A DNA stretch of 36,800 bases from Acutalibacteraceae bacterium (GCA_045660705.1 JAZREH010000070.1:1-36800), one strand, 5' to 3'. Positions 8,017 to 33,167 are shown, counted from the first letter of the stretch. The notes: generated by a model from the sequence alone, not told the origin. Numbers and translations are program-made.

Positions 8017-8038
8017 ATATTGCACCGCCATATCTTTT

Positions 8039-8067: not shown

Positions 8068-8182
8068 GGTTTACCTTTAATTATATGAACGATATGGGCG
8101 TCAAAATAACCAATATTCCCAAACCTTATTTTGCCTTAAAATCAAGACCTCCGATTAAAGGGCGGTCCTTTCTCAAAACAAA

Positions 8183-8413: not shown

Positions 8414-8430
8414 CTGACGGCGACTGCTTG
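8391..8430 (-). terminator. probable intrinsic terminator of the GH36 gene
   Basis: On the minus strand: CAAGCAG(UCGCC) GUCA (GGUGG)CUGCUUG, a 12-bp stem including 2 G-U pairs (8430..8403), followed by TTGTGTTTTTG. It lies 61 nt after the stop and overlaps the first codons of the HAD remnant. Confidence 0.5.
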
Positions 8431-8491
8431 CATAAAACTTCCTTCATTTTAACTCTTTACCCCGACTATTGACAAAGAGCCATTTTTTTAA

Positions 8492-13141: not shown

Positions 13142-13152
13142 AAAAACCACCC

Positions 13153-14022
13153 TTATTTAAGTATGTTAAAATAATGTTCCAAAAATGAATCTCTATCAGC
13201 CGATACAGCAACCCTGCAACGCGATTCTGCGGTGGGGTCGCCCTCACGAAGCACCGTAAATCCCCTTGCAGGACCCTCTCCAAGAATTACCTGCGGAATA
13301 CCGTTTACATATTTGCATATGCTGTCGTCAAGCGCAACCGCACCCGCAAGCGGGTCGTGGAAGATAACCTGATTACGCCATGCATCAAGCAGGTCATATA
13401 CAGGCAGAAGATTCTTCTTTTTAGTGCAACGCTCTTTCATTTCCTCGTGAGGAATAGACACCGTAAGGGTAACATCAAGCGGCACAACCGTAAGCCTTTT
13501 ATAACGCGCCCTGAAAACCGCCTCGGCGGCTTCGGGATCGCATTTTATATTCCATTCATCGTGACATTTTGTACGGAAATCGCCGCCCATTATAACCACT
13601 TCATCAAGCAGTTCAGCATCATCGGGATACTGCGCAAAAAGCAGTGCAATATTGGTAAGCGGTCCAATACAAAGCAGGGTAATCTCATTTGGATTTGCAT
13701 TTATTTTCTGATGCAAAAACTCGACCGCCGAGATATCGGCAAAGTCCTCGCTGTACTTCCACTTGCCGATTTTTTCGCTCTGTCCGGCAAGTTGCTGTGG
13801 TGAACTTGCCATACACAGCGGCTTTTCATTACCGACACAAATCGGTATATCCTTGCCGGCCTGTGTGCATAAAACGCTTGCAATCTTGGCGCGCTCGTAC
13901 GGCTTGCCCGTAACGGTGGTTATGCCAAGCAGGTCACACTCATCATTAGAAAGCAGATAGGACAGGCAGAGTGCATCGTCGATATCATAGCCGATATCGG
14001 TATCAAGCAATACTTTTTTCAT
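13153..14022 (-). CDS. inosine-uridine-preferring nucleoside hydrolase family protein (cytoplasmic)
   Basis: 289-aa ORF. The N-terminal aspartate cluster VLLDTDIGYDIDDA (DxDxxxDD) and CIGPLTNIA are typical of the IUNH family. Its ATG overlaps the stop of the upstream GH43 gene (TGATG). Confidence 0.85.
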   Translation of the reverse strand: MKKVLLDTDIGYDIDDALCLSYLLSNDECDLLGITTVTGKPYERAKIASVLCTQAGKDIPICVGNEKPLCMASSPQQLAGQSEKIGKWKYSEDFADISAVEFLHQKINANPNEITLLCIGPLTNIALLFAQYPDDAELLDEVVIMGGDFRTKCHDEWNIKCDPEAAEAVFRARYKRLTVVPLDVTLTVSIPHEEMKERCTKKKNLLPVYDLLDAWRNQVIFHDPLAGAVALDDSICKYVNGIPQVILGEGPARGFTVLREGDPTAESRCRVAVSADRDSFLEHYFNILK

Positions 14023-17000
14023 CAGAAAACCCCCAAAAGATGTTTTTTAAGTTTAGTCATATCGGCAACATCGACCGAATAGTTTCCGTCGATATCCGCC
14101 GCCTCAACTGTGATTTTCGTACCCTGTACAGCAAGATGTTTTTTAACCCTTACAAGGTCACGTATATCAATATCGCCGTCATCGTTGGCATCGTAAAGGT
14201 CGACACCCTGCGGCATATAATAATACGCGGCGGTAACAGAAGGTGAAGGCCCTGCATTTTTGACGGTATAGGATAATTCCTCGCTTACGCGCGCACCGTC
14301 AATTAAAAAGCCAACAAAACGGTAGTTTTCACCCGCGGGCGAAATATTCTTCTTCACCGATACCGTTATATCCTCGCCGCGTGTGGCAAGCGCCTTTTCG
14401 GGATAAAGCACAACACCGCCGTAATTTACGGTAAGATAGTTTGGTGTGCCCACGCGCATAATACGAAGATTTTTTAATGTCACAGGACAGTCCACAGTCG
14501 AATAATCAAGCCGCAGATAGAGTCTGCCGTCGGTTACATTTATCCCGTTTACGGTAAGTCGGCGGGTATAGGTAGCACCGCCCGAAAGCAGACTGCTACG
14601 CATCTCGCCCGATGGACTTGCAGTCGGGTTTGCCTTTAGTATACAACTGCCGATACCGTCACATGCCGAAACATCTACACTTACGCAGTATGTGCCGTTT
14701 GCAAGGCCTGTAAACTGCTTGTGAACATACCCCGACACTCCGTTATTTAGTGTGACGGTTTCATTTTCGTCACCTGTTACATGTGACGGCTCACTAAACG
14801 ACATGGCATCAAACCCAATATTGGTTACCTTGTCAAAATCATACTCGTTTTTAAGCACAGGCGATGCAACATCGCCCTGCTTGCCCGAAAACGCCATACG
14901 CAACAACTCAATACCGTCAACTTCGATTTTAGCGTTACTGTCGGTATTTGAATACCACATCATAACCGTGATACTGTTATTTGTAACCGCGATATTGTCA
15001 ATCGTTCTGACAGTCCAATCCTCAAAAACCGACTGTGCAAGTTGGTCGTAATACTCCTTACCTCCGACATTTGCCATAAATTTGGCACTTTTCTGACCCG
15101 CAGTATTCTTTACATAAAAACGCAGAGAATAAACGCCGTTTGGAACGGTAATCGGACCGGTAGAGATTGCGGTGCCGCTTGTCGTACCGCTTATGCGTAT
15201 GTGACTGTTACTCTTAATCCCGCCATAGCGAAGCGACAGATTTGCGTGTGCGGCAAACTTTTCGTTGGGGACTTCAATCGACATATCACATAGCGTATCC
15301 TGTTCGGGTATAAACATAATATCCGAAAATTCCATACGCCTGTCATCCGTCGCCGTTGGTGCCCAGTTTTCAATATCAATCCTTGCGTTGCCGTCGGTCA
15401 ATATAATATCTTTTATCTCAACTGTTGTTTCATCGGTAAAGTTATTACTTGGCGTCAGTTTAATCTGCTGTTTTTGACCCGATGGCGTAACAACGCGGAT
15501 ATATGTGTCATTATTAAGTCTGCCCTTTAGTGTCGCCTTAAGGGTATAGGTACCCTCGGTTACAGGAACGGTTGCCGAAATAAGGGTGTTTAAAAACGGA
15601 TTGTTCGGGTTTTCGTACCGTCCGCGCGCATCAACCGTCATAACAAGTTTTTTACCGAATATATTTTCGGGTGACTCAACACACTCGACAAACCCGTATT
15701 TAAAGCCATTTCCCGAGAATCGGGCAGGGTCAACCTCAATCTTGTGTGTGTGGTCGCTGACCGTTACAAGTTCGGGTGTTGCCGTTTCTTCAAGCCCCGT
15801 TTCTGGGGTGATGTTTATACCTTCAAACACGCTGTTTGCGTAGACACTTCTGACACCGACACTGCCGAGTGTATACGGGTCGCGTTTGTCAGCATAACGA
15901 AGCACCTGCACCCCGTCAAGATAGACCGTAATAACATTTCCAACCGCCGACACCTTAAGTTTTGCCGACCTGCCCGCCGTCACATTACATTTAGCAGTAG
16001 CAAGTGTAGTATACTCGGTAATTCGGTGTTTTTCGAGGATAATCTGTCCGTCCTCGATACCGACATAGTAGGCACGCTGGAAATACGCATCGCAAAGGTA
16101 CGGACTTTCACGAAGACCCGTTAAAACAGAGGTCGCGCGGAAAATAAAGCCCGCACTGTCGCCCTTGTTTAATGTTACATTGCCCTCTATTGAGTAATCG
16201 CCCCAACCGCTGTCGCCGACCAGCGCTTTACCGAAAGACTCGGCATTGCTGTATACCATTTTGCCGTCAGTTACCTGCGGTTCGGTTTCATATACCGTCC
16301 ACGCATCGGTATTGTTCGCGGCGTTTGTATATGCAGAAGATTTGCTGTCGGCAAGGACATTAACCTCGTAAAGTTCACCCGAACCCTTTGCAAAAAAGAT
16401 ACCAAGTGTCTGTTTACCTGCCGAAAGTTTTATATTTCGTATCGAATATGTGTTATATCCGTCGAATGAGTTACCGTCGGCGGGGATAACGACGCTCTTT
16501 ACAGCCTTGCCGTCCTGCATTACACAGACGGTTAAATCCTCAGCCAGTCGGTTAAGTTTCAAATCAACGGTGTATGTGCCGCTTTGACGGGCATTTATTT
16601 TGTAACTGAGCATCTGACCCGCATTTACCGAAACAGCGTTTCCGAGTTCTTCACCCGATGCATCGCATACCATAAAGCCGTCATTTATATTATTTGCCTG
16701 AACGGCTGGAATCTTTGACGGTACGGGTTTTACGCTTTCATATTCGCAACTGCCGTATGTTTTTCCGCTGAACGCAGTAAAGCCGCACTCGGCACCGCTT
16801 TTGCCGATAAAGTAACCGATTTTTCCGCCGTTTACGGTGTCATTGTGGGTTATGCGCTCTACCCCGTCCAAAAGACCGTAAATGTTGTCGGCATCCTGCT
16901 TTATAACGATACTGTGAAGTGATTCATACGCAAAGGTATCATTTAGTGCGGATGTTTTTGTCCAGACCGCCTTGCCGTCAACAAATTTCTGTATAACAAA

Positions 17001-18200
17001 GACCTTGTTTGCCTTGTCGATATATGCGCGACCGTAATTCATTGAGTCAACATAGCCAAATGTTACATATGAAACATCGGTTTTGTTCTTTAAATTAAAT
17101 TCTGCGCTGAATATATCGCCCGTCGTTTGTTTAGTCAGCAAGGTTGCACCCGCCGAAAGGGACAAAAGCCCGTCCTTTGCGGTGGCGTTACCGCTGTTTG
17201 TCCAACTGTTAAGCGTAGCATCCTCAAAATAATCGTAAAAATCGGGCAGTTGGGGACCGTCAATTTCGTGGGTAGTAGGACCCTGAACGCAAAGTTTTTC
17301 ACCGTTAAAGGTAAGTTTATCAAGGTTTATACGGCGCGAGAAAGACGCACCCCTTACATTGTATGAATTATGATAAACAATATAGTATGTATCAAGGTCG
17401 GGGCCGACAACGATACCGTTATGACCAAGACCGACATTGTCATCACCCTCGGTATTAAGCAGTACTATATTGTCGTTTTCCTCGGTAAAATTGTCGTCAA
17501 GATTGTGGGAATATGCGTATTCAACGCGGTAATTCTTTTCCCACACCTGATTACCTGTATAGGTAAGGTAGTATACACCCTTACGCTTGAACATCGTGGG
17601 ACCCTCGGTCCAGCGCATTTCGGGGCGGGAGTTTGCAATACCCGCATTATACTTATAATACGGTTGCGAATAGTCGGTGGGACCCGACATTTTCTTGACC
17701 CTTACACCGTTAAATTCACCGCATAAGAAGTAAAGGGTGTTATCGCCGTCCATAAAAACTGTGCCGTCGATATAGTTTTCATCAAGTTTTTCGCTGATAA
17801 CGGTAAATGGGCCTGTGGGCGAATCACTGACATAGAAATAGTGACCCAATCCCATGGGCGAGCCATACATATAAAACTTACCGTCTATGTAGTATACTTC
17901 GGGCGCATACAGATTGTCGTATGCGGGGTTGTCGGCGGGTTTGCCCGCCATAACATCGCCGTAAAAATCCCAGTTTATAAGGTCGCGCGATGACCAGCAG
18001 TATGTAATAGAATAACTTACCGCATAAAGGTAGTAAACACCGTTGTACTTCATTATATACGGGTCGCCGATTTGATTGCCGACCTTGTTCGGTTCGGTGT
18101 TTGTCGGTGGCACAATCGAGTTTTTATACGCCCCGACAGGAATACCGCACACAATCAGCATTGTAAATGACAGGAACAATGCGTACATTTTTTTTAACAT
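14022..18200 (-). CDS. secreted multi-modular GH43 glycoside hydrolase with CBM-like modules and a C-terminal type-I dockerin
   Basis: Signal peptide MLKKMYALFLSFTMLIVCGIPVGA. The GH43 propeller has the three catalytic-residue contexts GDPYIMKY, YIDGTVF and WTEGPTMF. It is followed by a LamG/ConA-like module, a CBM6/35-like module (SGTYTVDLKL), a second LamG/DUF1080-like module (WGDYSIEGNVTL..GFIFR), three beta-sandwich modules with the NG-Y signature (TEGTYTLKATLKG, PNGVYSLRFYVKNTAGQ, ANGTYCVSVDVSACDG), an InlB-B-repeat-like segment, and the dockerin. Confidence 0.85.
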   Translation of the reverse strand: MLKKMYALFLSFTMLIVCGIPVGAYKNSIVPPTNTEPNKVGNQIGDPYIMKYNGVYYLYAVSYSITYCWSSRDLINWDFYGDVMAGKPADNPAYDNLYAPEVYYIDGKFYMYGSPMGLGHYFYVSDSPTGPFTVISEKLDENYIDGTVFMDGDNTLYFLCGEFNGVRVKKMSGPTDYSQPYYKYNAGIANSRPEMRWTEGPTMFKRKGVYYLTYTGNQVWEKNYRVEYAYSHNLDDNFTEENDNIVLLNTEGDDNVGLGHNGIVVGPDLDTYYIVYHNSYNVRGASFSRRINLDKLTFNGEKLCVQGPTTHEIDGPQLPDFYDYFEDATLNSWTNSGNATAKDGLLSLSAGATLLTKQTTGDIFSAEFNLKNKTDVSYVTFGYVDSMNYGRAYIDKANKVFVIQKFVDGKAVWTKTSALNDTFAYESLHSIVIKQDADNIYGLLDGVERITHNDTVNGGKIGYFIGKSGAECGFTAFSGKTYGSCEYESVKPVPSKIPAVQANNINDGFMVCDASGEELGNAVSVNAGQMLSYKINARQSGTYTVDLKLNRLAEDLTVCVMQDGKAVKSVVIPADGNSFDGYNTYSIRNIKLSAGKQTLGIFFAKGSGELYEVNVLADSKSSAYTNAANNTDAWTVYETEPQVTDGKMVYSNAESFGKALVGDSGWGDYSIEGNVTLNKGDSAGFIFRATSVLTGLRESPYLCDAYFQRAYYVGIEDGQIILEKHRITEYTTLATAKCNVTAGRSAKLKVSAVGNVITVYLDGVQVLRYADKRDPYTLGSVGVRSVYANSVFEGINITPETGLEETATPELVTVSDHTHKIEVDPARFSGNGFKYGFVECVESPENIFGKKLVMTVDARGRYENPNNPFLNTLISATVPVTEGTYTLKATLKGRLNNDTYIRVVTPSGQKQQIKLTPSNNFTDETTVEIKDIILTDGNARIDIENWAPTATDDRRMEFSDIMFIPEQDTLCDMSIEVPNEKFAAHANLSLRYGGIKSNSHIRISGTTSGTAISTGPITVPNGVYSLRFYVKNTAGQKSAKFMANVGGKEYYDQLAQSVFEDWTVRTIDNIAVTNNSITVMMWYSNTDSNAKIEVDGIELLRMAFSGKQGDVASPVLKNEYDFDKVTNIGFDAMSFSEPSHVTGDENETVTLNNGVSGYVHKQFTGLANGTYCVSVDVSACDGIGSCILKANPTASPSGEMRSSLLSGGATYTRRLTVNGINVTDGRLYLRLDYSTVDCPVTLKNLRIMRVGTPNYLTVNYGGVVLYPEKALATRGEDITVSVKKNISPAGENYRFVGFLIDGARVSEELSYTVKNAGPSPSVTAAYYYMPQGVDLYDANDDGDIDIRDLVRVKKHLAVQGTKITVEAADIDGNYSVDVADMTKLKKHLLGVF
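14025..14198 (-). other. type-I dockerin module of the GH43 enzyme
   Basis: Two Ca-binding F-hand repeats: DANDDGDIDIRDLVRVKKHL and DIDGNYSVDVADMTKLKKHLLG. Confidence 0.85.
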
Positions 18201-18219
18201 AGGAAAACCCCTTTTCTTT

Positions 18220-18320
18220 TTATGTTAAAATACAGTCAGCCCGTACAAGAAAAGAATATTGCTGTGGAAGGAATACAATATAAACATAGACCTGTACAGG
18301 CTGTCTGTATTTTAACATAA
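18220..18320 (-). repeat. 101-nt element made of 30-nt imperfect inverted repeats around a 41-nt spacer, in the leader of the GH43-dockerin gene
   Basis: Left arm 18220..18249 is TTATGTTAAAATACAGTCAGCCCGTACAAG. The reverse complement of the right arm 18291..18320 is TTATGTTAAAATACAGACAGCCTGTACAGG. Of the 3 differences, 2 become G-U pairs only in the minus-strand RNA. The element ends 19 nt upstream of the start codon at 18200. Confidence 0.8.
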
Positions 18321-18352
18321 CTTCTTAACTTTTACTTCTTACCTCTTACTTC

Positions 18353-18390
18353 AAAAACCCCCGTCCCCCTCCGGGGAGGGAGGCGGGGGC
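18353..18390 (-). terminator. GC-rich intrinsic terminator ending the long upstream operon
   Basis: On the minus strand: GCCCCCGCCTCCCTCCCCGGAGGGGGACGGGGG followed by TTTTT (18357..18353). It starts ~38 nt after the stop at 18428. Confidence 0.75.
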
Positions 18391-18427
18391 GCCGATTAAA
18401 TTTTGTCGGTCAAGACCGCATTTTAAA

Positions 18428-20509
18428 TCAGATAAGTCCTGCCATACGCTTTTTAGCGTTGATAAGGTCAAGGATATCGACACTACCGTCGCCGTTTACA
18501 TCGGCAAATTTATCGGTAAGTTCGCCCGCACCGATAAGACGCTTGCGAAGTTTAATAAGGTCGTCTACATCAACCTTGCCGTCGCCTGTTGCATCACCGC
18601 GAACAAGTGCGGCAGTTATAATATCCTCAACGATACCGGTTACAGGGTTGGTTAACCACTGCTCACCCTTTACGCCGAAATCGGCAACCGAAAGGGTCTT
18701 GTCGACGGTTGCCTCAGTAACCTTGCGATAAGCAAAACCGTCGAAGTGGTGTTCAACACCCGAACCGCCAAACCAAATAAATATCTTTGTTGCGCCTGTG
18801 CTATCGGTCTTGAATCTAACCTGTTCTGTAACCCAACCGTTACTTGCGGTATAACCGAGTTTAGAACTTGACGCCGTACCGCTGCTGATTGTTATATCGC
18901 CGATTGCGGTAGTTTTGCGGTTAAAATACATAATATATTCGGTATTGGGTTCAAGTGTTATATTACCGGTTGTGCTACCGCCACCCGCGTGTTTTATTTC
19001 GCTGTTGCTCATAATTGCGGAATTGCGAGTAAAACGGGTTGGCGTAGATTTGCACCAAGGGAATGATGTATTGTCGATTGAAACCTCATTGAGTTTTTCA
19101 ATCTTGAAACCGTCAAAGGTAAATGTAGTATCCTGTGCTACCGCAGGTATCCACCAACCGTAGTGACCGGCGGTACCCGTTACATAGAACTGTGAGGAAA
19201 TGTACTGCCAACCCTCGTCTGCTTTAAGATTGAATTTATTGGTGTATCTGCCGGCATTTACATCACTGCCGTTGCCGCCCCACCACTCAAAGTTATTTAC
19301 ATCGTGAGAAACCTTTACATAAGCACTTATTACATAGAAACCGGGGTCAATGTTTTTAATGGCAGGGGCGAAGAAATTGGCTTTGCCGGCTGCCAATGTC
19401 ATTTCTGCCTCTTTGCCACTTACAAAACCGCCGTTTTTAACCGTAAAACGGGCATCGTTTTGTGTGAAGGTGGAAAATTCTGCATAACCCGTGGGATTGT
19501 CACTGCGCTTAATAACCGAAAGACCGTCGAAACGAATCCAAGTGTCATTTACAGAAGCGTCAACCGAAAGCCACGATTTAATCCAGATAACTCCCGAAAG
19601 ACCTGTTGTAAACTCAACTTCCTTTAAATACCAACCGTTTGCATCGTTAACAATACTTACGCCGGGTTTTGAGGTGTTTTCACCGTTATGCTCACTAAAG
19701 GTTAACTGCTCATTATTATAGGTGAAAACATTTAAATTACCGTTAACCGTACCCTGAGTAGTGCGGTTATATGCATAAAAATACATTGTATATGTGGTAA
19801 GGGGTTCAAGAACAAATCGCTTGGTAAGAAGTTTACCTGTGCCCCATTTTGTTCCCAAGTTAGCACCGAATGACGAAGATGTAACGGTCTTTACATTTGT
19901 ATCCGTAAGAGCGCCGGCAACACCAGACTGATCAAGCATTTGAAGTTTTTTAAGTTTAAGGTTGTCAAGGCGTATCCAGGTGTTCTTTGTTACACCTGTG
20001 GTTTCATCGGTATATACATTCGCATTAGAAGCACCAAACCAGACAAGACCAACATAAACATAACCATTAGTTACATTACATACGATTCTAACGCCCTTGT
20101 TCCAACCGTTTGTATAGTTGAAACCGTTAACCGTAATCTCTGTTGCAGAGGTAGTGCCGGTGTTAACACCAATCTTAGCAGAAGGTGCCAAATCATCAGC
20201 GGTATTGATATCGCCCGAAGTCATAATATCAAACGAAAATTCATACAAACCGTTTTCAAGTTCATCTATTTTAGAAGTATTACCAAAACCAGCTGTTGCA
20301 CTTCCGTTAAATACAATACTGGTTGTGTCTTCGGGATTCGGACCAGGCAGTGTTGAACAGGCACCACCAAAGAGTTTATTGTCGATTTCGATGTTATGCG
20401 CGCCACCTGATAAAATCGCATCAGCAGCCGAAGCGGGGATCATAGTCATCGGCACAAAAAGTGCCACAACCATAAGAATGCTAATAAAAATACTAATTAA
20501 CTTTTTCAT
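18428..20509 (-). CDS. secreted non-catalytic protein: four CBM-like beta-sandwich modules (A-B-A-B) + type-I dockerin
   Basis: Signal peptide MKKLISIFISILMVVALFVPMTMIPASA. The modules end in WIRLDNLKLKKL, WIRFDGLSVIKR, FTFDGFKIEKL and HHFDGFAYRKV. I recognise no hydrolase motifs. It is a paralogue of residues 1-530 of the upstream 1544-aa protein. Its ATG overlaps the upstream stop (ATGA). Confidence 0.8.
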   Translation of the reverse strand: MKKLISIFISILMVVALFVPMTMIPASAADAILSGGAHNIEIDNKLFGGACSTLPGPNPEDTTSIVFNGSATAGFGNTSKIDELENGLYEFSFDIMTSGDINTADDLAPSAKIGVNTGTTSATEITVNGFNYTNGWNKGVRIVCNVTNGYVYVGLVWFGASNANVYTDETTGVTKNTWIRLDNLKLKKLQMLDQSGVAGALTDTNVKTVTSSSFGANLGTKWGTGKLLTKRFVLEPLTTYTMYFYAYNRTTQGTVNGNLNVFTYNNEQLTFSEHNGENTSKPGVSIVNDANGWYLKEVEFTTGLSGVIWIKSWLSVDASVNDTWIRFDGLSVIKRSDNPTGYAEFSTFTQNDARFTVKNGGFVSGKEAEMTLAAGKANFFAPAIKNIDPGFYVISAYVKVSHDVNNFEWWGGNGSDVNAGRYTNKFNLKADEGWQYISSQFYVTGTAGHYGWWIPAVAQDTTFTFDGFKIEKLNEVSIDNTSFPWCKSTPTRFTRNSAIMSNSEIKHAGGGSTTGNITLEPNTEYIMYFNRKTTAIGDITISSGTASSSKLGYTASNGWVTEQVRFKTDSTGATKIFIWFGGSGVEHHFDGFAYRKVTEATVDKTLSVADFGVKGEQWLTNPVTGIVEDIITAALVRGDATGDGKVDVDDLIKLRKRLIGAGELTDKFADVNGDGSVDILDLINAKKRMAGLI
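18431..18601 (-). other. type-I dockerin module of the 693-aa protein
   Basis: DATGDGKVDVDDLIKLRKRLIG and DVNGDGSVDILDLINAKKRMAG. Confidence 0.85.
19562..19813 (-). repeat. DNA-level paralogous segment (B module), copy 1; partner at 24280..24513
   Basis: It encodes VLEPLTTYTMY..NVFTYNNEQLTFSEHNGE..PGVSIVNDANGW..FTTGLSGVIWIKSWLS. Long identical nucleotide runs are shared with copy 2, e.g. ATACAT[T/C]GTATATGTGGTAAGGGG[T/C]TCAAG. Even the antisense shadow ORFs share ESHDL.QITPE.PVV. Confidence 0.8.
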
Positions 20510-23500
20510 AATGCATTTTTTCCTTTCTTCTTTTTATTCAAGAAAATTATTACTAAAACGGTTAAACCTGCTACAACAAGTACGCCGCCCGCAATTGCTA
20601 TCCAAGTAATCGGACTTGACACTATGTTGCCCTTTTTCTCTACCGTTAAGGTATCAAGTTCGGGTGATTTGGGTCGGTTTTCGGACGGTTTTATTAGTTC
20701 GATTACCTCCTCAACGGGTGCATCGTACTTGGGTCCTTCCCCGCCCTTATAATCCATAATCTTCATATCTCCCTGATACTCCAGTTTGATATCGTCGATA
20801 TATGCCCATTCGCCGGGTTCTACACCTGCCCAGATGCCGACAAGTATCTTACCTTCAGAAACATAGATATCCCGTGTTTCGATTCGCGACCATGTGTCGA
20901 TACTGTACTTAAACTGAGTGTTGATTCCTTTTTCGGCAATTGATGTTGTGTTTACGAAGATATGACCTGACGAAAGACCGCCGCTTGATTTAACCATTGC
21001 AGAAATGGTGTAGTATCCGTTGGGCAGGTCGGTCATATTAAAGCTCGTGCCGCCGCCTACAGACTTGTCTGCAACACCCACAACCAATTTAGTAGCGCTG
21101 TTATATCCACCCGATGTGAGCGTGATCGCACCCTGTTTGATAAGTTTTCCCTTAGGAACCACAAACTCGGCGGCGTAGGGGAATTTAATTTCGCCCCCTT
21201 GTTTACCATTGGTACTTACCTTTCGTATCTCAAAGTCGGTGACTTCAAGCCACTGTTCTGCCGATGTAGACGCATAGAAAATACCGAAGAATAGGTAGCC
21301 GTTTTTAACCGTAATATTTTTTATATATACCTCCTTCCATTCTTTAATGGGCTGTGACAAATCAAGAACTTCCTGCGTTTTAACCTCGGGTCCCGCATTT
21401 ATGCGGATCGAGGCATTACTCTGACCGCCCGAACTTCTTACCTTGGCGGCGACGGTATACTGACCGTCTTCAAGTGTACCCTCTACAAACGACTTATAGA
21501 AGGTAACACTTCTGTCAGGTTCACCCTTGATTACCAATTTATTACCGTCATCTCCGTATGCTGAAAGATGATAATAATTGTAGTTATCGTAGTCTTTGTT
21601 ATATGTAAGATTCCAAGTTGAGTTATTGATGCGGTAGAAATATTCGTACTTTTCGCTATCTATACCGATATCTCCCGTACCCTCACGCAAAAGTTCAATC
21701 CCGCACATTTCAAGTTTTTGTCCCGCGTCTGCACCGCCATACCAAAAACCAATATCAAGTTTACCGTTTGTAACCTTGATATCACTAAGTTCGACAAGTA
21801 CCCAATCGGGTATATTGTACTGCATCTGGATATTTTCCTCTTTGCCGTTATTGGCAATGATTTTTGCAGCAAGTTGACCGCCCGTACTTCTTGCATAACC
21901 GCGAAGTGTGTATGTACCGTCTTCAAGGTCGCCTTTGGCACCAAAGTACCAACTACCATTTGGCAGATTACCGTCAATAAGGATGGTGGTTTCACCCGCC
22001 CAACGACCCGTACCGCCCCTCACGTTTTTGGTGTCACGGGTAAACATTTCGGGATAAAGGGTCTTTTTCCACTCATACTGTTTTTCGGTTACAGCAGGAC
22101 CCTTACCAAGGCGTTTAATCTGAATACCGTCGATTTCAAAGGTTTTGCCTGCAACCGAATTTACCGAAAGCGAAACATAAAGTTTGCCATTTTTAACCTC
22201 AACCCCACGAAGTTCAACCATTTTCCAGTCGGAATATGCGCCGCTAAGGTTATTTGAAGTAACAATACAGTTGCCCGACGAAGCCTTTAGGTATGCGTGG
22301 TTATGACCGCCCGACGAACGAATCTTTGCCGTTACGGTATAGGTGCCGTTTTCAAGGTTTGCAAGACTTCTGTAAAGGGTTGCAGAAAAATCGCTGTCGC
22401 GTGTGATTGTCATACGAGAATCGGTAACCGCACCACCTGCATTAAGGGTAAGATAGTCATAAACCGAAGTGGCAGTAGGACGGAGCGTTGCATTATTTAC
22501 TGTGATAATCTCCGCATACTCCTCTGTGGGAAGTTTTTCTTCCGCTTTAGGCTCACCAACAAGGTGAAGTTGAACATTTTTAAGTTCAAATTTGTGGTCG
22601 AGGTTATTACTGTCATACCATACGCCGATAGCAAGTTTATTATCCGAAACCTTAATATTTGTGATTTCAACCTTTACCCAACCATTGATTTTGTGGAACA
22701 GTTGACGCGCAAGTTCAGTACCGTTATTGGCAATAAGTTTTGCCGAAGACTGACCGCCTGTATTCTTTACATATGCGGTAAGGGTGTAGGTACCGTTTTC
22801 AAGGTTATTTACACCGCCTGCATACCAGGTGCCGAATGCGCCACTATTAGAATTGGTTATAACCAGTTTTCTTGACTTACCGTCGTCCTCGTTATAAACA
22901 CATTTGGGCAGTTCCTTTGTAAAGTTATCAACAGGAACATCGATTGTTTCCTTGTACGTTACGGTAGGTGTCTGAGAATCGGTTTCACCAACCTTTTTAA
23001 CCTGAAAACCGTCGATTTCGATTTTTTGTCCCACATCCTGCGAAACGGTCAATGCAAAATAAAGATAATTGCGGTCAACAACAATATCCTGCTGCTGAAT
23101 AAGTATCCAGTCGGTATATTCAGCGTTATAGTTTCTACCCTTAACCTCGGTATACTGCTGAGGTGTGGTATTGGTTGTAAAACGAACCGCCGCCTGACCG
23201 CCCGTTGAACGGATATAGGCAGAAACGGTATATGTGCCGTTTTCTATTGTACCGTTCATAAGGTCATAAAAGGTAATTGTTGACGCGGTATCGGTAGTAT
23301 AAACAATCCGCGAATCGGTAATTTTACCGCCTTTTTCGTATGTGACCCTATCTTTGTTTGAACTATCCGAACCGGTAAAGCCCATACTGAAGTTATTATA
23401 GGTCTTAATCTTTTCGTATTTTTCCTTTTTGGGAGGATTTAAAAGCGGTGTTACCTCAAGAGCATAGATACCGCATTTATTTGCAGCAATCTGCAGCCCC

Positions 23501-25140
23501 TCTTTGATATCGGTTGCAGGGGTAATAACGATTGTTGGTTGTGCGCTTTGAAGTTTACGGTAACCGACCGAATCAATCTGAAGCGTACCGCCTATGTTTG
23601 TAGCAGTCAGTTTAATCTTACCTGAAGCGGGCGCCTTAACCTTTATCTGCGCTACCGCAAAATCGTTTGACGAAACATCAAGCGAAATACTGTCATTCTT
23701 TTCAGCCTCTGCTTTAAGTTCGCCCTCGCTGACACCGTCTGCCTTATAGCGTACAAAAACAATGTATTCCTTGCCCGCATCAAGTGTAAGTTCGGGGATA
23801 GTATTACCTGCACCGAGTGTCACCGCCTCAGCGTACTCAACCTTAAAGCCGTCAACCGAAAGCCAACCGTTTTGGTCACTGTTATACGAAAGACCAACAT
23901 TCAGCGTACCGTTTGTCACATTTACCGCGGTTGAGAAATATGTCCACTTATCAATGGGGGCATTCTCGGTGCCGTTTTCGATAACGGTATTTACATCATT
24001 TGCAAAAAGTTTTGTTGTGGCAGAGCCGCCCGAACTCTTAAAGTAGCCGCTGACGATATACATACCGTTTTTCACACTCTTATGGGTGGAGGATACGGTA
24101 TATTCGCTGCCAGTACCTGTAAGTTTAAGTTCGTTACTGCCGATAAATCCGCCTGCCTCAACCGCCGCGTTTACATTTGCGGTGGAATCAATCTTGTTAT
24201 TATCGACATAACCCTGTATTGAAGAACCTTCCTTTGCAATCGAAAGTCCGTTTATATAGAGTGTGGCCGACGGATTTGAAAGCCACGACTTAACCCAGAT
24301 AACACCCGAAAGTCCCGTTGTAAAGGTGAGTTTCTTTACAATCCAGTTGCCCGTAGAATCGGCAATCGAAACGCCTGGGTTTGCAACCTTTTCGCCGTTA
24401 TTTTCACTGAAAGTGGGTTGGTCGTTATTATATGTGAAAACATTGAAAGTACCGTTGAAACCTGTGTTTGAAACAGGAATATACATCGTATATGTGGTAA
24501 GGGGCTCAAGCACATAGCGACCTGTAAGCAGGAAATTTCCCGGAACGACAATAAGCGATTTCGGTGAAACATAGGTCTTTGCGGTGGTTTTACCCGCGTT
24601 TATGGCATTGATATCAAGTTCCGTTACCTTTTCGACGGTTATGTTATCAAGTTTAATCCAAGTACCCGCGGGACCTGTGTACCACATAACACCTACCCAG
24701 ACATAGCCGTCGGTAACATCCGCCATAACCTGAACGGTGGTCCATTCGGTATAGTTTGCGGCGTTCAAAAATCTTTCGCCTGTGTTTTGTCCGTTTACAT
24801 TGGCGCCGAGTTTTACACTTGACTGACCGCCCGAACTTTTAACATCGAAACTGATTGCATAAAGACCGTTTTCAAGTTCAATCTTGCGGGTCGCGCCGAA
24901 AGATTTGCCGTTAGGGTCGGCTTTTATCATAACGCTATCGTTTGAAACCGACCCAGGCTCATTCACACAGAAATTTGTAAAAAGCGAGTTGAAATAGTGC
25001 CTTTTTTCGGAAAAAGGCTCGGTTATATAACCGTCGTCTGCATCCGCTTTGACGATATTAGGGAGTTTAATTGCAAGCGGTGTGCAGATAATCAGCGCCG
25101 CCAAAAGAATGCTTAAAATTTTAACGGATGTTTTCTTCAT
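20506..25140 (-). CDS. secreted, C-terminally membrane-anchored non-catalytic protein built from ~10 CBM-like beta-sandwich modules
   Basis: 1544 aa with signal peptide MKKTSVKILSILLAALIICTPLAI. There are eight modules with the signature [EPK]-[ND]-G-x-Y-x-[VLI]-x-[AG]-x-x-[KR]-[SN]-[ST]-G-G (e.g. LENGTYTLTAYVKNTGGQSSAKL) plus two B-type modules (LEPLTTYTMY.., LDAGKEYIVFVRY..). The C-terminal TM helix ITWIAIAGGVLVVAGLTVLVIIFL (20539..20610) is followed by NKKKKGKNAL. No catalytic motif recognised. Confidence 0.8.
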   Translation of the reverse strand: MKKTSVKILSILLAALIICTPLAIKLPNIVKADADDGYITEPFSEKRHYFNSLFTNFCVNEPGSVSNDSVMIKADPNGKSFGATRKIELENGLYAISFDVKSSGGQSSVKLGANVNGQNTGERFLNAANYTEWTTVQVMADVTDGYVWVGVMWYTGPAGTWIKLDNITVEKVTELDINAINAGKTTAKTYVSPKSLIVVPGNFLLTGRYVLEPLTTYTMYIPVSNTGFNGTFNVFTYNNDQPTFSENNGEKVANPGVSIADSTGNWIVKKLTFTTGLSGVIWVKSWLSNPSATLYINGLSIAKEGSSIQGYVDNNKIDSTANVNAAVEAGGFIGSNELKLTGTGSEYTVSSTHKSVKNGMYIVSGYFKSSGGSATTKLFANDVNTVIENGTENAPIDKWTYFSTAVNVTNGTLNVGLSYNSDQNGWLSVDGFKVEYAEAVTLGAGNTIPELTLDAGKEYIVFVRYKADGVSEGELKAEAEKNDSISLDVSSNDFAVAQIKVKAPASGKIKLTATNIGGTLQIDSVGYRKLQSAQPTIVITPATDIKEGLQIAANKCGIYALEVTPLLNPPKKEKYEKIKTYNNFSMGFTGSDSSNKDRVTYEKGGKITDSRIVYTTDTASTITFYDLMNGTIENGTYTVSAYIRSTGGQAAVRFTTNTTPQQYTEVKGRNYNAEYTDWILIQQQDIVVDRNYLYFALTVSQDVGQKIEIDGFQVKKVGETDSQTPTVTYKETIDVPVDNFTKELPKCVYNEDDGKSRKLVITNSNSGAFGTWYAGGVNNLENGTYTLTAYVKNTGGQSSAKLIANNGTELARQLFHKINGWVKVEITNIKVSDNKLAIGVWYDSNNLDHKFELKNVQLHLVGEPKAEEKLPTEEYAEIITVNNATLRPTATSVYDYLTLNAGGAVTDSRMTITRDSDFSATLYRSLANLENGTYTVTAKIRSSGGHNHAYLKASSGNCIVTSNNLSGAYSDWKMVELRGVEVKNGKLYVSLSVNSVAGKTFEIDGIQIKRLGKGPAVTEKQYEWKKTLYPEMFTRDTKNVRGGTGRWAGETTILIDGNLPNGSWYFGAKGDLEDGTYTLRGYARSTGGQLAAKIIANNGKEENIQMQYNIPDWVLVELSDIKVTNGKLDIGFWYGGADAGQKLEMCGIELLREGTGDIGIDSEKYEYFYRINNSTWNLTYNKDYDNYNYYHLSAYGDDGNKLVIKGEPDRSVTFYKSFVEGTLEDGQYTVAAKVRSSGGQSNASIRINAGPEVKTQEVLDLSQPIKEWKEVYIKNITVKNGYLFFGIFYASTSAEQWLEVTDFEIRKVSTNGKQGGEIKFPYAAEFVVPKGKLIKQGAITLTSGGYNSATKLVVGVADKSVGGGTSFNMTDLPNGYYTISAMVKSSGGLSSGHIFVNTTSIAEKGINTQFKYSIDTWSRIETRDIYVSEGKILVGIWAGVEPGEWAYIDDIKLEYQGDMKIMDYKGGEGPKYDAPVEEVIELIKPSENRPKSPELDTLTVEKKGNIVSSPITWIAIAGGVLVVAGLTVLVIIFLNKKKKGKNAL
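20776..23418 (-). repeat. tandem array of six ~140-150-aa modules (protein-level repeat, period ~420-440 nt) arranged as (a-b)x3
   Basis: Approximate module borders are aa 575-716, 722-860, 870-1010, 1020-1152, 1160-1308 and 1315-1455 of the 1544-aa ORF. Odd modules share GG..TDSR..T...F/Y leaders and ..E(I/V)(D/T)(G/D)(F/I)(Q/E)(V/I)(K/R)(K/R) ends. Even modules share K(L/I)IANNG and (I/V)G(V/F/I)W(Y/A). Confidence 0.75.
24280..24513 (-). repeat. DNA-level paralogous segment (B module), copy 2; partner at 19562..19813
   Basis: It encodes VLEPLTTYTMYIPVSNTGFNGTFNVFTYNNDQPTFSENNGEKVANPGVSIADSTGNWIVKKLTFTTGLSGVIWVKSWLS. See copy 1. Confidence 0.8.
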
Positions 25141-25142
25141 AC

Positions 25143-27698
25143 TTATACTCCCTTTCTCTTTTTATTTATAAGTAATACCGCAAGTACACCGACCGCGATA
25201 ATCACCGCCGCGCCAAGTCCGATACCGACAAACGGAATAGCGTTTGAACCGCTGTTCCCTGCTACCGTTTCAAGTGTCATATCGGGAACCGAAACCGAAA
25301 CGGTTTTAAGGTCGCTTTCAAGCGGGGCGATATACAGATTATCAAACTCGGCAGAACCTGCCGCCGCGCGGAATCCCGCCGCACCCGACATATACGGGTT
25401 TGATGTATCGGTATAACTGAACAGTTCGGTGTCATCGACAAAGCAGGTTATGGTCGAACCGACACAGGTCACCTTAATATGGTATGTACCCATCTTTACA
25501 AGACCTTTGTTCAGTTTAAGAAGTGTCTTTTTCTCGGACTGGAAGTGCTTTTCAAGGAAAATTCCCTTGTTTGAAAAACCGATATAATATGCGTTATGCT
25601 CATACTGGTCGGTGGTTTTTTCGATATTGTCGAAGAACTGATTTGTGCGGACAATTATTCCGGCGGTTGAGCCGTCAAGGTAGGTCATATCCGCCTCAAT
25701 CGAATAGTCACCCCAAGAACTTTTACCGACAAGCACCTTACCGTAGTTTGAAAGTTTTTTAAGTCCCATTTTTCCGTCCTTAAACGATGGCGGGTTTTCA
25801 TAACTCTTGAAGAAAAATTTGCCTTCCTTATCGTAAAGACTGTCGCAACTGTTGGCAAGTTTAGTGGTTTCGGTGTAGTCATTTATATGCACCTGATACA
25901 CCTCGGCACCGCCCTTTTCAAGGTAAAGTTTTACGGTGTTTTTGCCCTTTTTCAGTGAAATATTTCTTACAGAATAGGTGTTATAGGCGTCCTCATTCTT
26001 TTTACTTTCGGGAATCTTTACGCCCGCCTTTATCACATTATCGGCGGTAACCGCAAGGGTTGTATCCTTTTCGACCTTGCCGAGTGTGATATCAAAACTG
26101 TATACGCCGTCTGCCTTTACATTTGCATCAAAGGTCATAAACTGACCCTTTTTAAAGGCAACCGCACTACCCGTTTTGCCGTAGGAAGCAGGTGTTACGG
26201 TGAGGTCTTTTACATTATTTGCGTGAACCGCATCGTTGTTACCCGGCACTACCTTTTCGGTATCGTAGTCGGCACTGCCCATAGCCTTGTCGGAAAATGC
26301 GGTGTAGCCAACCTTAATATCGGAATTTTCAGCGATATATCCGATTGCGCCGCCAACCGCCGGCATAGCGTGACGGCTCTTTTCGGTGCCGTCAAGATAA
26401 ATTATCGTGGTATCTTCGGTCTGCTGAACCTTTATCGCGTGGTTGGCGTTGTAGGCAAAACCGTCGTTAAGAGGACTGCTCTCACTCCACAAAACGGTGC
26501 CGTCTTTTATAAATTCGGTCTTAATTGATGCCGACTTCTGGTCAAGATATACCCTGCCGTAGTTCTTGTTATCGGTGTAAGCAAAGACCGCCGCCGCATA
26601 GCCAGAATTATCGGTGGTATAAAGATTCATTTCGGCAGAATAGACCTTTTCGGTCTTTTTCTTTGAAATAAGGGAAATTTTATCGCCCTTTTCAGCACTT
26701 ATAAAACCGTCGGCATATTCCCAACTCTGACCCGTTTCAAATTCAGAGGTATCATTCTTTTCAAACCAGACCGCGAAGTCGGGCATGTCGGGATCAGCAA
26801 CCTCGTGCGAGGACTGACCCTGTACATAAGGCTTTGTACCGTTAAATAGTATCTTGTCAAGGTCGATATGACGGTCAGCATTGGTTCCCGTAACCTTATA
26901 GGTATCGTGATAAATGATATAATAGGTATCAAGGTCGGGACCGACAAGTATACTGTTATGACCAAGTCCCTTTATTTCACCCTCGGTATTAAGGGTAAGC
27001 ACATTGTTTTCAGGCTCGGTAAATCCCTTTTGGAGGTCATCGGAAACGGCATATTCAACGCGGTAGTTGGGAAGTAAAACATTGTTACCCGTATATGTAA
27101 GATAGTATGTGCCGTTGCGCTTGAACATTGTCGGACCCTCGGTCCAAAGGTCGGCAACACTTACCTTGAAATAATCATTATTGCTTACGAATGTTGTGGG
27201 GCTGGTAAGGGTGGTATAGTTTACGCCGCCGCTTCCGCACCAGAGAAAGTAACGGGTGTTATCACCGTCGGTAAATACAGTGCCGTCGAACTGGCGGCCT
27301 GTATTTTCTGTGATAAGTTTAAACGGTCCTGTAGGTTTATCACTTTTATAAACATAGTGACCCTTACCAAACGGGGCACCGTACATATAGAAAGCACCGT
27401 CGAGGTAGTATACTTCGGGGGCGTACATTGCATAATGCACTTTTTTATCGAGTGATTCATCAAGAAGTTCGCCCTCGCTCTTCCAATTTACAAGGTCCTT
27501 CGATGACCAACTTTTAATATTGCCCTCCGACATATAAAGGTAGAAAATACCGTTGTACTTAAGAATGTACGGGTCGCCGCCCTCGAATATCTTTCCCTCG
27601 CTGTCTGCAAGCGGGTTTTGATATGCAGCTACACCAAGGGGTACTGCACACATAACAAGTACCATACAAAGAACAAGCGAAATCAGTCTTTTAATCAT
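25143..27698 (-). CDS. secreted GH43 glycoside hydrolase with LamG/CBM-like modules and a C-terminal membrane anchor
   Basis: I place the start at ATG 27698 (AAGAGGT 6 nt upstream, ATGA overlap with the upstream stop), not 27734. Signal peptide MIKRLISLVLCMVLVMCAVPLGVAA. The GH43 triad contexts GDPYILKY, QFDGTVF and WTEGPTMF are present. The LamG-like, CBM6/35-like (DGVYSFDITL) and DUF1080-like (WGDYSIEADMTY) order matches the dockerin paralogue. The protein ends in TM helix IPFVGIGLGAAVIIAVGVLAVLLI (25167..25238) + NKKRKGV. Confidence 0.85.
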   Translation of the reverse strand: MIKRLISLVLCMVLVMCAVPLGVAAYQNPLADSEGKIFEGGDPYILKYNGIFYLYMSEGNIKSWSSKDLVNWKSEGELLDESLDKKVHYAMYAPEVYYLDGAFYMYGAPFGKGHYVYKSDKPTGPFKLITENTGRQFDGTVFTDGDNTRYFLWCGSGGVNYTTLTSPTTFVSNNDYFKVSVADLWTEGPTMFKRNGTYYLTYTGNNVLLPNYRVEYAVSDDLQKGFTEPENNVLTLNTEGEIKGLGHNSILVGPDLDTYYIIYHDTYKVTGTNADRHIDLDKILFNGTKPYVQGQSSHEVADPDMPDFAVWFEKNDTSEFETGQSWEYADGFISAEKGDKISLISKKKTEKVYSAEMNLYTTDNSGYAAAVFAYTDNKNYGRVYLDQKSASIKTEFIKDGTVLWSESSPLNDGFAYNANHAIKVQQTEDTTIIYLDGTEKSRHAMPAVGGAIGYIAENSDIKVGYTAFSDKAMGSADYDTEKVVPGNNDAVHANNVKDLTVTPASYGKTGSAVAFKKGQFMTFDANVKADGVYSFDITLGKVEKDTTLAVTADNVIKAGVKIPESKKNEDAYNTYSVRNISLKKGKNTVKLYLEKGGAEVYQVHINDYTETTKLANSCDSLYDKEGKFFFKSYENPPSFKDGKMGLKKLSNYGKVLVGKSSWGDYSIEADMTYLDGSTAGIIVRTNQFFDNIEKTTDQYEHNAYYIGFSNKGIFLEKHFQSEKKTLLKLNKGLVKMGTYHIKVTCVGSTITCFVDDTELFSYTDTSNPYMSGAAGFRAAAGSAEFDNLYIAPLESDLKTVSVSVPDMTLETVAGNSGSNAIPFVGIGLGAAVIIAVGVLAVLLINKKRKGV

Positions 27699-28651
27699 TC
27701 TGTTACCTCTTTTCTTTCTATGATCGGTCCGCATACATTATTACGGTCACACACAAGTTTGCCATCTTCTATCAAAAGTTCAGCCAACTGAACATAAGAA
27801 CGGTGTTCCTTATAGGTAATATTATCGTTTTCTATTCTTCCGCTGTAACGGTCAAAGTTCAGTGTAAAGTAAACTATAAATGCGCGGTCGCCGCTTACAA
27901 ATATATCGGCATGGTGTCCGTTATTCTTGTCATACGCCCTTGTACCTGGGGTGTTTAAAATATGTGTTTCGTACTTCCAATCGGTGGCATCGTCCGAACT
28001 GTATACCGAAAGACCGTCCCAAGAATCGACAATCAGCCAATATTTTTCTTTCCAATAAAACACATTAGGACCCTCATTGGCGTAGTCGTGCATCGCATAA
28101 CCCTTTTCTTCCCATTTTATAAGGTCTGTACTGTCTGCATAATAACAGCCGCAACGATTATCGTTACAACGCTTATACCACATACGCCATCCGCCGTTAT
28201 AGGGTATGATTGCGGGATCAATAACACCGTCTTCCATATCAACCATAGTAACAAAATCCCAGTTCCACAAATCGCGCGATACATAATGTGCGGTGGTATA
28301 ATCCTTGCGCCACGTCTTTGAAACACCGCTTGAATAGGTTACAAACATGTGATACACATTGTCAGCCTTTATGATTTCGGGCGCCCAAAAGGTGTTAAGC
28401 CCCTCCTCAAAATTAAGCGATAGTTCACCTTTATAATTGAATGTCAAACCACCGTCACCTGAAACAGCGACACCAATCTGTGTGCCAAAATACCATTCGT
28501 TTTGTTCACACTCAAGGTCGCCGCGGCGTGCAGTATAAAACATCCACAATTCGTCAGTGACATCATTATATAACAGCATCGGGTCGGCAGGTGCGAAATG
28601 CACGGGGTCCTCGAAAAGCGGGGTATTTATTATATTTTTATTTTCTGTCAT
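27695..28651 (-). CDS. cytoplasmic five-bladed beta-propeller glycoside hydrolase, GH43-like
   Basis: No signal peptide. GH43-style motif contexts are present: APADPMLLY..WMFYT, FWAPEIIKADNVYHMFVTY, VIDPAIIPYNGGWRMWY and NEGPNVFYWKEKYWLIV. I prefer the start at ATG 28651 over the TTG at 28660 (better SD spacing). Confidence 0.6.
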   Translation of the reverse strand: MTENKNIINTPLFEDPVHFAPADPMLLYNDVTDELWMFYTARRGDLECEQNEWYFGTQIGVAVSGDGGLTFNYKGELSLNFEEGLNTFWAPEIIKADNVYHMFVTYSSGVSKTWRKDYTTAHYVSRDLWNWDFVTMVDMEDGVIDPAIIPYNGGWRMWYKRCNDNRCGCYYADSTDLIKWEEKGYAMHDYANEGPNVFYWKEKYWLIVDSWDGLSVYSSDDATDWKYETHILNTPGTRAYDKNNGHHADIFVSGDRAFIVYFTLNFDRYSGRIENDNITYKEHRSYVQLAELLIEDGKLVCDRNNVCGPIIERKEVTE

Positions 28652-28666
28652 TTTAATCAAACCTTT

Positions 28667-29659
28667 TTATCCGACAATGCCGGAATTTTCAAAATTCTGG
28701 ACCAGCTTTTTCTGAATTATAAAATAAAATATCAAAAGCGGTACCGCATACAAAAGTGCCGCCGCATGTTTAACGGCATCAAGAATAATATTGTCATCGC
28801 CCACAACACCAAGCAGTTTATTTGCAACATCGGAAATCATTTCGCGGTTTGCCCATTGGAAAAGACTGCCGATACGCTTGGCAAGGAAGGGACCGTCGGG
28901 ATAAAAATATCCCGTATAGTATGTATCACCGTAGTTCCACACAAACGAAAGGGTCAAAACCGTAATAATTATCGGCTTTGCATTGGGGAAAGCAATTCGG
29001 ATATAGGTCTTAAAATAACCGCAACCGTCGATGCGTGCCGCCTCCTCAAGAACGCTTGGGAATCCCTTAAACGACTGTCTGAACATAAAAGCAAATACAC
29101 TTTGCTTAACACCAAAGCCAAACAGATTTATAATCAGCAAAACCATTGGATTGTTTACAAGGTCGATGGTCTGACCTCCGTTTAAAAGCGGAATTATTCC
29201 AAAAAGGCTAAACTTTTTAAATGAAAGATACTGTGAAATAAGCGTTGCCTGCGGCGGAACAAGGATAACCAGCACTACAAAGAAGGTAAGCATCTTTGTG
29301 TACCAGAAATTATGCCGCGCAATGGCATAGCCAATCATTGCACTCATAAACATCTGTATCAGGGCAACAGCTGCGGCATACAGTATTGAAAATGCAACAT
29401 TCCTGACATTCCCGTACACCATATAGATAGCGACCCTGAAACTGCCCAAAGAAAACTTTTCGGGAATCCAGATTGAACCGCTTCCGCCAATCATTCCCAT
29501 ATCATTAAATACGGTGGGGAAAAGTTTAAGCACCGGATAAAGAATAATAAAACATATTCCAATAACAATCGAATAGAAAAGCAGGTTTCCTATCCCCTCA
29601 CGCCATATAGCACCCAAAGGTTTTTCGCGGCGGACTAACTTTTCAGGTTTTTTAAGCAT
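28667..29659 (-). CDS. carbohydrate ABC transporter permease (MalG/BPD_transp_1 type)
   Basis: 330 aa, polytopic, with EAA loop LEEAARIDGCGYFKTYIRIAFPNAKP. Overlaps the upstream permease gene by 8 nt. Confidence 0.85.
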   Translation of the reverse strand: MLKKPEKLVRREKPLGAIWREGIGNLLFYSIVIGICFIILYPVLKLFPTVFNDMGMIGGSGSIWIPEKFSLGSFRVAIYMVYGNVRNVAFSILYAAAVALIQMFMSAMIGYAIARHNFWYTKMLTFFVVLVILVPPQATLISQYLSFKKFSLFGIIPLLNGGQTIDLVNNPMVLLIINLFGFGVKQSVFAFMFRQSFKGFPSVLEEAARIDGCGYFKTYIRIAFPNAKPIIITVLTLSFVWNYGDTYYTGYFYPDGPFLAKRIGSLFQWANREMISDVANKLLGVVGDDNIILDAVKHAAALLYAVPLLIFYFIIQKKLVQNFENSGIVG

Positions 29660-30557: not shown

Positions 30558-30559
30558 GC

Positions 30560-33160: not shown

Positions 33161-33167
33161 AACTACC

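Follow-up and report, generated by a model that had tools for sequence, protein, structure and literature searches.

Predicted membrane-anchored and dockerin-bearing versions of a GH43 enzyme and a carbohydrate-binding array protein are paired at one locus of an Acutalibacteraceae bacterium

Introduction

Cellulosome producers encode single catalytic families in both dockerin-bearing and dockerin-less versions; in Clostridium thermocellum, for example, Cel48S and Cel9R have free counterparts in Cel48Y and Cel9I. Ruminococcus flavefaciens produces CttA, a secreted, non-catalytic protein with multiple carbohydrate-binding modules (CBMs), which is attached by a dockerin. The amylosome of Ruminococcus bromii includes Sas6, a dockerin-bearing non-catalytic multi-CBM protein (bioRxiv 10.1101/2022.11.20.514607), and glycoside hydrolase family 43 (GH43) enzymes of Bifidobacterium longum combine a signal peptide with a C-terminal transmembrane (TM) region that is taken to be a surface anchor (PMC8939339). 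Thus a GH43 enzyme with a C-terminal TM helix, paralogues with and without a dockerin, and dockerin-bearing non-catalytic CBM proteins each have a precedent. Here, we describe a locus in which these elements occur together. It lies on contig JAZREH010000070.1 of an Acutalibacteraceae bacterium (GCA_045660705.1), the whole of which, 36.8 kb, was analyzed (referred to below as the window), and its core is a module of four genes encoding two GH43 enzymes and two array proteins, one member of each pair ending in a TM helix (GH43tm and ARRtm) and the other in a dockerin (GH43doc and ARRdoc).

The locus departs from each of these systems in several respects. The dockerin-less versions of C. thermocellum are free CBM enzymes rather than TM-anchored ones, their genes are not paired in an operon, and no binding protein has been duplicated in parallel. 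Sas6 and CttA resemble ARRdoc in being secreted, non-catalytic, multi-CBM proteins attached by a dockerin; they differ in module type (CBM26 and CBM74, for starch) and number (two, versus 4 to 10 here), and no adjacent TM-anchored paralogue has been described for them. BlArafA, BlArafB, and BlArafE of B. longum are, like the enzymes described here, multidomain Gram-positive GH43s, and act with neighboring enzymes on arabinogalactan-type glycans (PMC8939339), but they belong to GH43_22 and GH43_34 whereas the present enzymes are GH43_33-like, and they lack the DUF1080 or CBM6/35 core, a dockerin paralogue, and CBM-array proteins. The surface glycan-binding proteins (SGBPs) of Bacteroidota polysaccharide-utilization loci are, like the arrays, non-catalytic strings of β-sandwich domains that are tethered to the cell, with genes next to those for the enzymes and the transporter of a single glycan locus. 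SGBPs are outer-membrane lipoproteins that accompany SusC/D, however, whereas here the arrays end in a TM helix or a dockerin and accompany an ATP-binding cassette (ABC) importer; the likeness is one of analogy. To our knowledge, a parallel, operon-linked, and conserved duplication of an enzyme and a binding protein into TM and dockerin versions has not been described, nor has the recruitment of an array's own modules into the dockerin enzyme. The same holds for the family of array proteins, of which very few members are found.

Results

Gene order and anchors of the four-gene module

All genes of the module, and its neighbors on either side (8492-36769), were called as open reading frames (ORFs) on the minus strand. 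GH43tm (25143-27698, 851 residues) consists of a GH43 domain, an unassigned domain, a CBM6/35-like domain, DUF1080, and a C-terminal TM anchor; its ATG start (27698) falls in a 4-nucleotide overlap with the stop of the gene upstream, and the longest ORF begins at 27734. It is followed by ARRtm (20506-25140, 1544 residues), a non-catalytic protein with a signal peptide, 10 CBM61-like modules, and a C-terminal TM anchor, and then by ARRdoc (18428-20509, 693 residues), with four modules in the order A-B-A-B and a C-terminal dockerin. Overlaps of 4 nucleotides between GH43tm and ARRtm and between ARRtm and ARRdoc are consistent with translational coupling. A gap of 227 nucleotides (18201-18427) separates ARRdoc from GH43doc and contains, about 35 nucleotides past the ARRdoc stop, a minus-strand hairpin that resembles an intrinsic terminator (18351-18395), with a G+C-rich stem of 14 bp followed by U5 and a free energy of -28.6 kcal/mol. 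GH43doc (14022-18200, 1392 residues) has the same core as GH43tm in residues 1 to ∼800 and continues into three modules of type A, one short module without an assignment, and a dockerin. The ORFs lie where the original prediction had placed them and, with the hairpin in the gap, bear out its minus-strand order of TM-GH43, TM array, dockerin array, terminator, and dockerin GH43.

TM segments were identified by a hydropathy scan, and dockerins with the Pfam profile Dockerin_1 (PF00404; cutoff, 22.9 bits). Each of the four proteins has one N-terminal signal-type segment; an additional C-terminal helix is present only in GH43tm and ARRtm, and in neither dockerin protein. The anchor of GH43tm (25146-25238, minus strand) comprises a helix at residues 821 to 844 (25167-25238) and the tail NKKRKGV (25146-25166); that of ARRtm (20509-20610, minus strand) comprises a helix at residues 1511 to 1534 (20539-20610) and the tail NKKKKGKNAL. 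Both proteins have the sequence layout of a C-terminal (type I) TM anchor, namely, a signal peptide, a single helix of ∼20 to 24 residues, and a Lys/Arg tail, and are predicted to be anchored accordingly; the anchor is conserved in the orthologues of both. Dockerin_1 scored 35.2 bits in the 1392-residue protein and 28.9 bits in the 693-residue protein. The GH43doc dockerin (residues 1336 to 1389; 14034-14195, minus strand) has the calcium-binding loops DANDDGDIDIRD and DIDGNYSVDVAD, and the ARRdoc dockerin (residues 638 to 688; 18446-18598, minus strand) has two canonical loops, GDATGDGKVDVDD and DVNGDGSVDILD. Both exceed the profile cutoff and contain two loop/helix repeats, as type I dockerins do. 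The claim that each pair comprises one TM-anchored and one dockerin version is thus upheld, with helix and tail confined to the TM copies and Dockerin_1 and its two loops to the others.

The GH43 pair

The Pfam profile Glyco_hydro_43 (PF04616; cutoff, 32.2 bits) matched GH43doc and GH43tm with E values of 2.5e-36 and 2e-38, respectively (125.9 and 132.8 bits), and 3keto-disac_hyd (DUF1080) matched both proteins. A CBM35-like match in the longer copy, GH43doc, fell below the cutoff; CBM6/CBM35 matches are present in relatives. Pairwise alignment gave 40% identity over 834 residues, from the signal peptide through the end of DUF1080. The predicted core of GH43, LamG-like, CBM6/35-like, and DUF1080 domains therefore stands as regards GH43 and DUF1080, which Pfam recognizes, and as regards the end-to-end similarity of the two proteins. 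The LamG-like label does not stand, as Pfam gave nothing significant for that stretch (residues ∼310 to 490). Similarity is also evident at the DNA level, as predicted: a motif singled out in the original prediction occurs exactly twice, at 17586-17612 and 27120-27146, where no occurrence is expected by chance, and the stretches 17361-17470 and 26901-27010 align with 84% mean column identity.

The best PDB relative of both copies is 4QQS (E values of 8e-28 and 1.2e-28), a GH43_33 α-L-arabinofuranosidase whose catalytic triad of general base, pKa modulator, and general acid is D17, D126, and E195 (PMC9278983). These residues align with GDPY, (I/F)DGTVF, and WTEGP in both copies, each of which looks catalytically competent at the residue level. 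Relative to GH43tm, GH43doc has gained ∼540 residues; they include three CBM61-like modules of type A (residues 838 to 1250; 14451-15689, minus strand), homologous to those of the array proteins, which account for the additional β-sandwich modules that had been predicted ahead of the dockerin. The module immediately before the dockerin had no significant match in Pfam.

The array pair and its modules

Over their first ∼600 residues, ARRtm and ARRdoc are 30% identical (pairwise BLASTP, 204 bits, E value of 5e-59), in agreement with the claim that they share an A-B-A-B N-terminal half. Pfam gave nothing significant for the repeat regions of the array proteins, ARRdoc matching Dockerin_1, nor for single A and B modules. 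An iterated profile search started from one ARRtm module detected A modules in ARRtm (eight), ARRdoc (two), and the C-terminal extension of GH43doc (three), and it weakly matched the CBM6/35-like domain in each GH43 core. Because a search begun with a B module also ends up at the A modules, A and B are divergent versions of one module family. ARRtm contains 10 such modules, A-B-A-B followed by six A, and ARRdoc contains four.

A profile built from an alignment of 13 A modules (A1) was compared with the PDB, where it matched the C-terminal module of a GH53 endo-β-1,4-galactanase (9fli, E value of 9e-12) and TmCBM61 (2xom, E value of 0.0018). One module was modeled with AlphaFold (AF2) at a predicted local distance difference test (pLDDT) score of 83.6, and a Foldseek search with this model placed the TmCBM61 entries 2xom and 2xon first and second (E values of ∼5e-6; TMq of 0.66 to 0.67), followed by other CBMs of β-sandwich type. 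Since TmCBM61 emerges both among the profile matches and at the head of the fold matches, we assign the array modules as CBM61-like, an assignment made from sequence profiles and a structural model. TmCBM61, from the Thermotoga maritima GH53 galactanase (2XOM/2XON), binds β-1,4-galactan, which fits the galactosidase genes of the locus. The likeness is one of profile and fold, with an identity of only ∼17 to 18%, and the modules differ from TmCBM61 in occurring here as 4 to 10 tandem copies without a catalytic domain. The AF2 model of full-length ARRdoc was of low confidence (pLDDT of 56.6), and its fold matches were only generic multi-CBM proteins; SGBP-B of Bacteroides thetaiotaomicron was among the fold matches of both the module and the ARRdoc models.

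A relative on a 3.8-kb Logan contig, P0123 (1002 residues), has an SGNH/GDSL esterase fused N-terminally to an A-B-A-B array and a variant dockerin. Judging from this fusion, the array can also be appended to a catalytic protein, as expected if it is a targeting or binding part.

Distribution and duplication history

A homologue search with the GH43 core returned 525 matches, and anchors were surveyed among the best 120. The four-domain core (∼820 residues) is widespread, being found in Paenibacillus, Virgibacillus, and presumed Bacteroidota with a type IX secretion system sorting domain (PF18962). Among the best 120 matches, a C-terminal TM helix is restricted to eight proteins of uncultured Clostridia, which form one clade (0 of the 112 others), and a dockerin is present in only three. 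The order TM-GH43, large TM array, small array, and dockerin GH43 is kept in three lineages, represented by the window, a locus designated L001, and the loci L005/L007. The GH43tm orthologue is 72% identical by BLASTP in L001 (73% in the trimmed alignment) and 48% identical in L005/L007 (50%); over the trimmed GH43 alignment as a whole, orthologues of the window are 73 to 77% identical in L001 and 44 to 52% identical in L005. Two more distant loci, L002 and L006, have the order TM-GH43, small array, and large TM array, without a dockerin GH43. Their small arrays (L002, 12670-14787, 705 residues; L006, 12672-14399, 575 residues) have neither a TM helix nor a dockerin and end in a conserved domain of ∼220 residues, for which Pfam gave no match. 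Tiny acidic ORFs (41 to 125 residues) lie between the small array and the large TM array in both loci.

A neighbor-joining tree of the GH43 core (∼775 columns, 200 bootstraps) was built from three dockerin forms, three TM forms, and the TM-only distant Clostridia. The dockerin clade and the TM clade each received 100% support and are sisters at 96%, within a clade supported at 100% to which the TM-only lineages form the outgroup (100%). The two GH43 domains of the window thus fall in one clade, with the same Asp/Asp/Glu triad and the same best PDB relative, and not in different subfamilies, the outcome that the original prediction had named as one that would refute it. Because the dockerin and TM clades are sisters and the outgroup is TM-only, the TM anchor is ancestral and the dockerin copy an old derived duplicate; by the same tree, the duplication predates the split of the three lineages, with both copies retained since. 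In the array tree, the N-terminal halves of the large arrays group at 83% with the small arrays on the other side (supports of 83 to 100%), which points to the same kind of old split as in the GH43 proteins. Since the TM-only lineages already hold a small array without helix or dockerin, the pairing of a large anchored with a small unanchored array may predate the dockerin. The trees therefore back the duplication and change of anchor put forward in the original prediction, but not a simple swap of anchoring modules: GH43doc carries its additional ∼540 residues, and ARRtm has six more modules than ARRdoc.

An exhaustive search with ARRdoc against 1.84 billion representatives found about six true relatives, the remaining matches being to the dockerin only; a word-indexed homologue search returned three matches, and an exact look-up found no record of the 693-residue sequence. 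The exhaustive search returned none of the large TM arrays (1544 to 1598 residues), despite the 204-bit score in pairwise BLASTP, probably as a result of library content or filtering. A scan of a genome collection with GH43tm gave two loci, both from distant Planctomycetes, and a metagenome scan with the dockerin-side extension of GH43doc gave one short locus of 8.5 kb.

Neighboring genes and likely substrate

The region upstream of the module (27695-36769, minus strand) encodes, beginning next to GH43tm, a small signal-less GH43/BNR-like protein (27695-28660, 321 residues), two ABC permeases, a DUF5696 protein, a Yip1 protein, an NHL/TPR membrane protein, and two further permeases. This cluster has the same order in all five lineages (the window, L001, L002, L005, and L006). 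At the end away from the module, the relatives have a large solute-binding protein (∼960 to 980 residues), which lies outside the window here; the DUF5696 protein has 866 residues. The cluster contains two permease pairs and three proteins of unassigned function, and no ATPase gene was seen in it.

Downstream of the module, the window encodes an IU-nucleoside-hydrolase-like protein (13153-14022, 289 residues), a GH35 β-galactosidase (11048-13150, 700 residues), and a GH36 α-galactosidase (8492-10654, 720 residues), all on the minus strand and without a signal peptide. In the relatives, L007 carries GH35, and L002 and L006 carry GH2 instead. The start of the nucleoside hydrolase family gene (E value of 2.4e-56) overlaps the GH43doc stop; such a gene is unusual among those of a glycan locus, and L007 has none at the equivalent position. 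The target of the locus is most likely a plant glycan rich in galactose and arabinose, of the galactan or arabinogalactan type, judging from the likeness of the modules to CBM61, a catalytic domain that resembles GH43_33, and the presence of galactosidase genes.

The G+C content steps from 0.37 to 0.38 (1-8000) to 0.41 to 0.48 (8000-36800) at ∼8 kb. On the low-G+C side are genes for a DUF5107/TPR protein (343-3555), an AraC regulator (3658-4449), a GFO/IDH/MocA oxidoreductase (4440-5414), and a DUF255 thioredoxin-like protein (5612-7567) with weak matches to six-hairpin glycosidases.

Discussion

We favor, with some reservation, the explanation that the four-gene module is the extracellular arm of a Gram-positive polysaccharide-utilization locus in which the same cleavage and binding activities are displayed by two modes of attachment. 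By the trees, the ancestral locus encoded a secreted GH43 enzyme along with a large binding protein made up of multiple CBMs, both with the signal peptide, C-terminal TM helix, and Lys/Arg tail that would tether them to the cytoplasmic membrane. Duplication of both genes took place in the common ancestor of the three lineages; the TM helix was lost from the GH43 duplicate, which acquired three CBM61-like modules and a dockerin, and the short copy of the array carries a dockerin as well. The TM copies would act at or near the cell envelope, a placement that follows how B. longum GH43 enzymes with this layout are generally interpreted (PMC8939339). The ten-module ARRtm may span the wall, extend outward, and capture the glycan polymer, and the dockerin copies would be held non-covalently by a putative cohesin-bearing partner. 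Released oligosaccharides would enter through the adjacent ABC permeases, and the GH35, GH36, and small GH43-like enzymes, which lack signal peptides, would complete their breakdown. That the two versions make up one cell-proximal and one scaffold-borne tier, as the original prediction had it, is pure inference.

A number of observations weigh against this explanation, and they concern position, substrate, specificity, and docking. Only ∼25 residues separate the last domain of GH43tm from its TM helix, so the enzyme probably works near or within the wall, and it may sit beneath the wall rather than on the surface. The substrate assignment draws only on distant similarity to CBM61 and on the GH families of neighboring genes. 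The paralogues are only ∼40% (GH43) and ∼30% (array) identical, and they may differ in specificity and not merely in location. This last point bears on a different account of the locus, in which the paralogues were kept through divergence of substrate or linkage, the anchors are secondary, and GH43doc, with its extra modules, attacks another part of the glycan. Such an account is possible, if on the whole improbable. It would fit the gap between the GH43 paralogues and their orthologues (73 to 77% identical in L001 and 44 to 52% in L005), the three binding modules added to GH43doc, and an old duplication of which both copies were kept in three lineages. It fits less well with the shared four-domain core, catalytic triad, and best PDB relative of the two enzymes, the near-equal E values of that match (8e-28 and 1.2e-28), and an anchor type that is strictly clade-specific. 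Divergence in specificity is, moreover, compatible with display by two attachment modes and not exclusive of it.

As regards docking, a scan of 19 window proteins and of ∼100 kb of flanks from five related loci turned up neither a cohesin nor a scaffoldin. There was also no cohesin among the top 50 fold matches of the full ARRdoc model, which is weak evidence given the low confidence of that model. The B modules were considered as hidden cohesins and rejected, being homologous to the A modules and without a cohesin match in Pfam. The dockerin of the small array is canonical only in the window copy. In five relatives (L001, 16034-18025; L005, 17378-19453; P0123; P0179; and P0180), it is atypical, its second calcium loop being replaced by a conserved noncanonical segment, K[AS]C.F..(E)(E)KG.E[IV].I, which suggests a distinct, single-loop type of dockerin of which the second half was replaced in the window lineage. 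In one sample of the L005 lineage, the ENA assembly L007, the small-array gene (7800-9886) is split into ORFs of 272 and 408 residues, and may be a pseudogene or the product of an assembly or frameshift error. The variant dockerins and the split gene raise doubt as to how general, or how necessary, docking of the small array is.

These findings could mean that there is no scaffold tier, and that the dockerins bind a single-cohesin surface anchor or a partner encoded at the same locus, or are orphans or make some other contact, so that all four proteins lie on one surface. In keeping with this, the two dockerins of the window are only 38% identical, and TM-anchored proteins with a single cohesin, as well as organisms that have few dockerin proteins, have been documented (PMC11557425). 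We nevertheless regard the absence of a scaffold tier as rather doubtful. Scaffoldin genes usually lie elsewhere in the genome, and cohesins of ruminococci can diverge beyond the reach of sequence searches (PMC13463774); the absence of a cohesin from a contig of only 37 kb means little. Finally, that the C-terminal helix and basic tail form a cleaved sortase or exosortase sorting signal, leaving the TM proteins covalently linked to the wall or released, is highly improbable and was rejected: an LPXTG signal does end in these two elements, a hydrophobic helix and then Lys/Arg residues at the very C terminus, but ahead of the helix there is neither LPXTG nor another conserved motif in any of the 13 TM-type proteins inspected (eight GH43 orthologues and five large arrays).

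Display of the same activities by two attachment modes can also be carried further. The locus would then encode a self-contained Gram-positive capture-and-cut device, a ten-module string spanning the wall together with a membrane GH43 enzyme, mirrored by dockerin copies on a cohesin that is invisible to sequence searches, possibly on the DUF5696 or the NHL/TPR protein; this would amount to a minimal "galactanosome" independent of the classical cellulosome. We consider this version unlikely.

Should the two anchors indeed hold equivalent activities nearer to and farther from the cell, the locus is a natural experiment, with two paralogue pairs in one operon and conservation across lineages. It could then show a division of labor between cell-bound and complex-borne enzymes in Gram-positive bacteria of the gut or rumen, and the recruitment of dockerins onto a pre-existing membrane-anchored system. 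The locus also defines a rare and unannotated family of predicted multi-CBM61-like surface proteins, which could be used to probe glycans and to mark the utilization of galactan or arabinogalactan by uncultured Clostridia.

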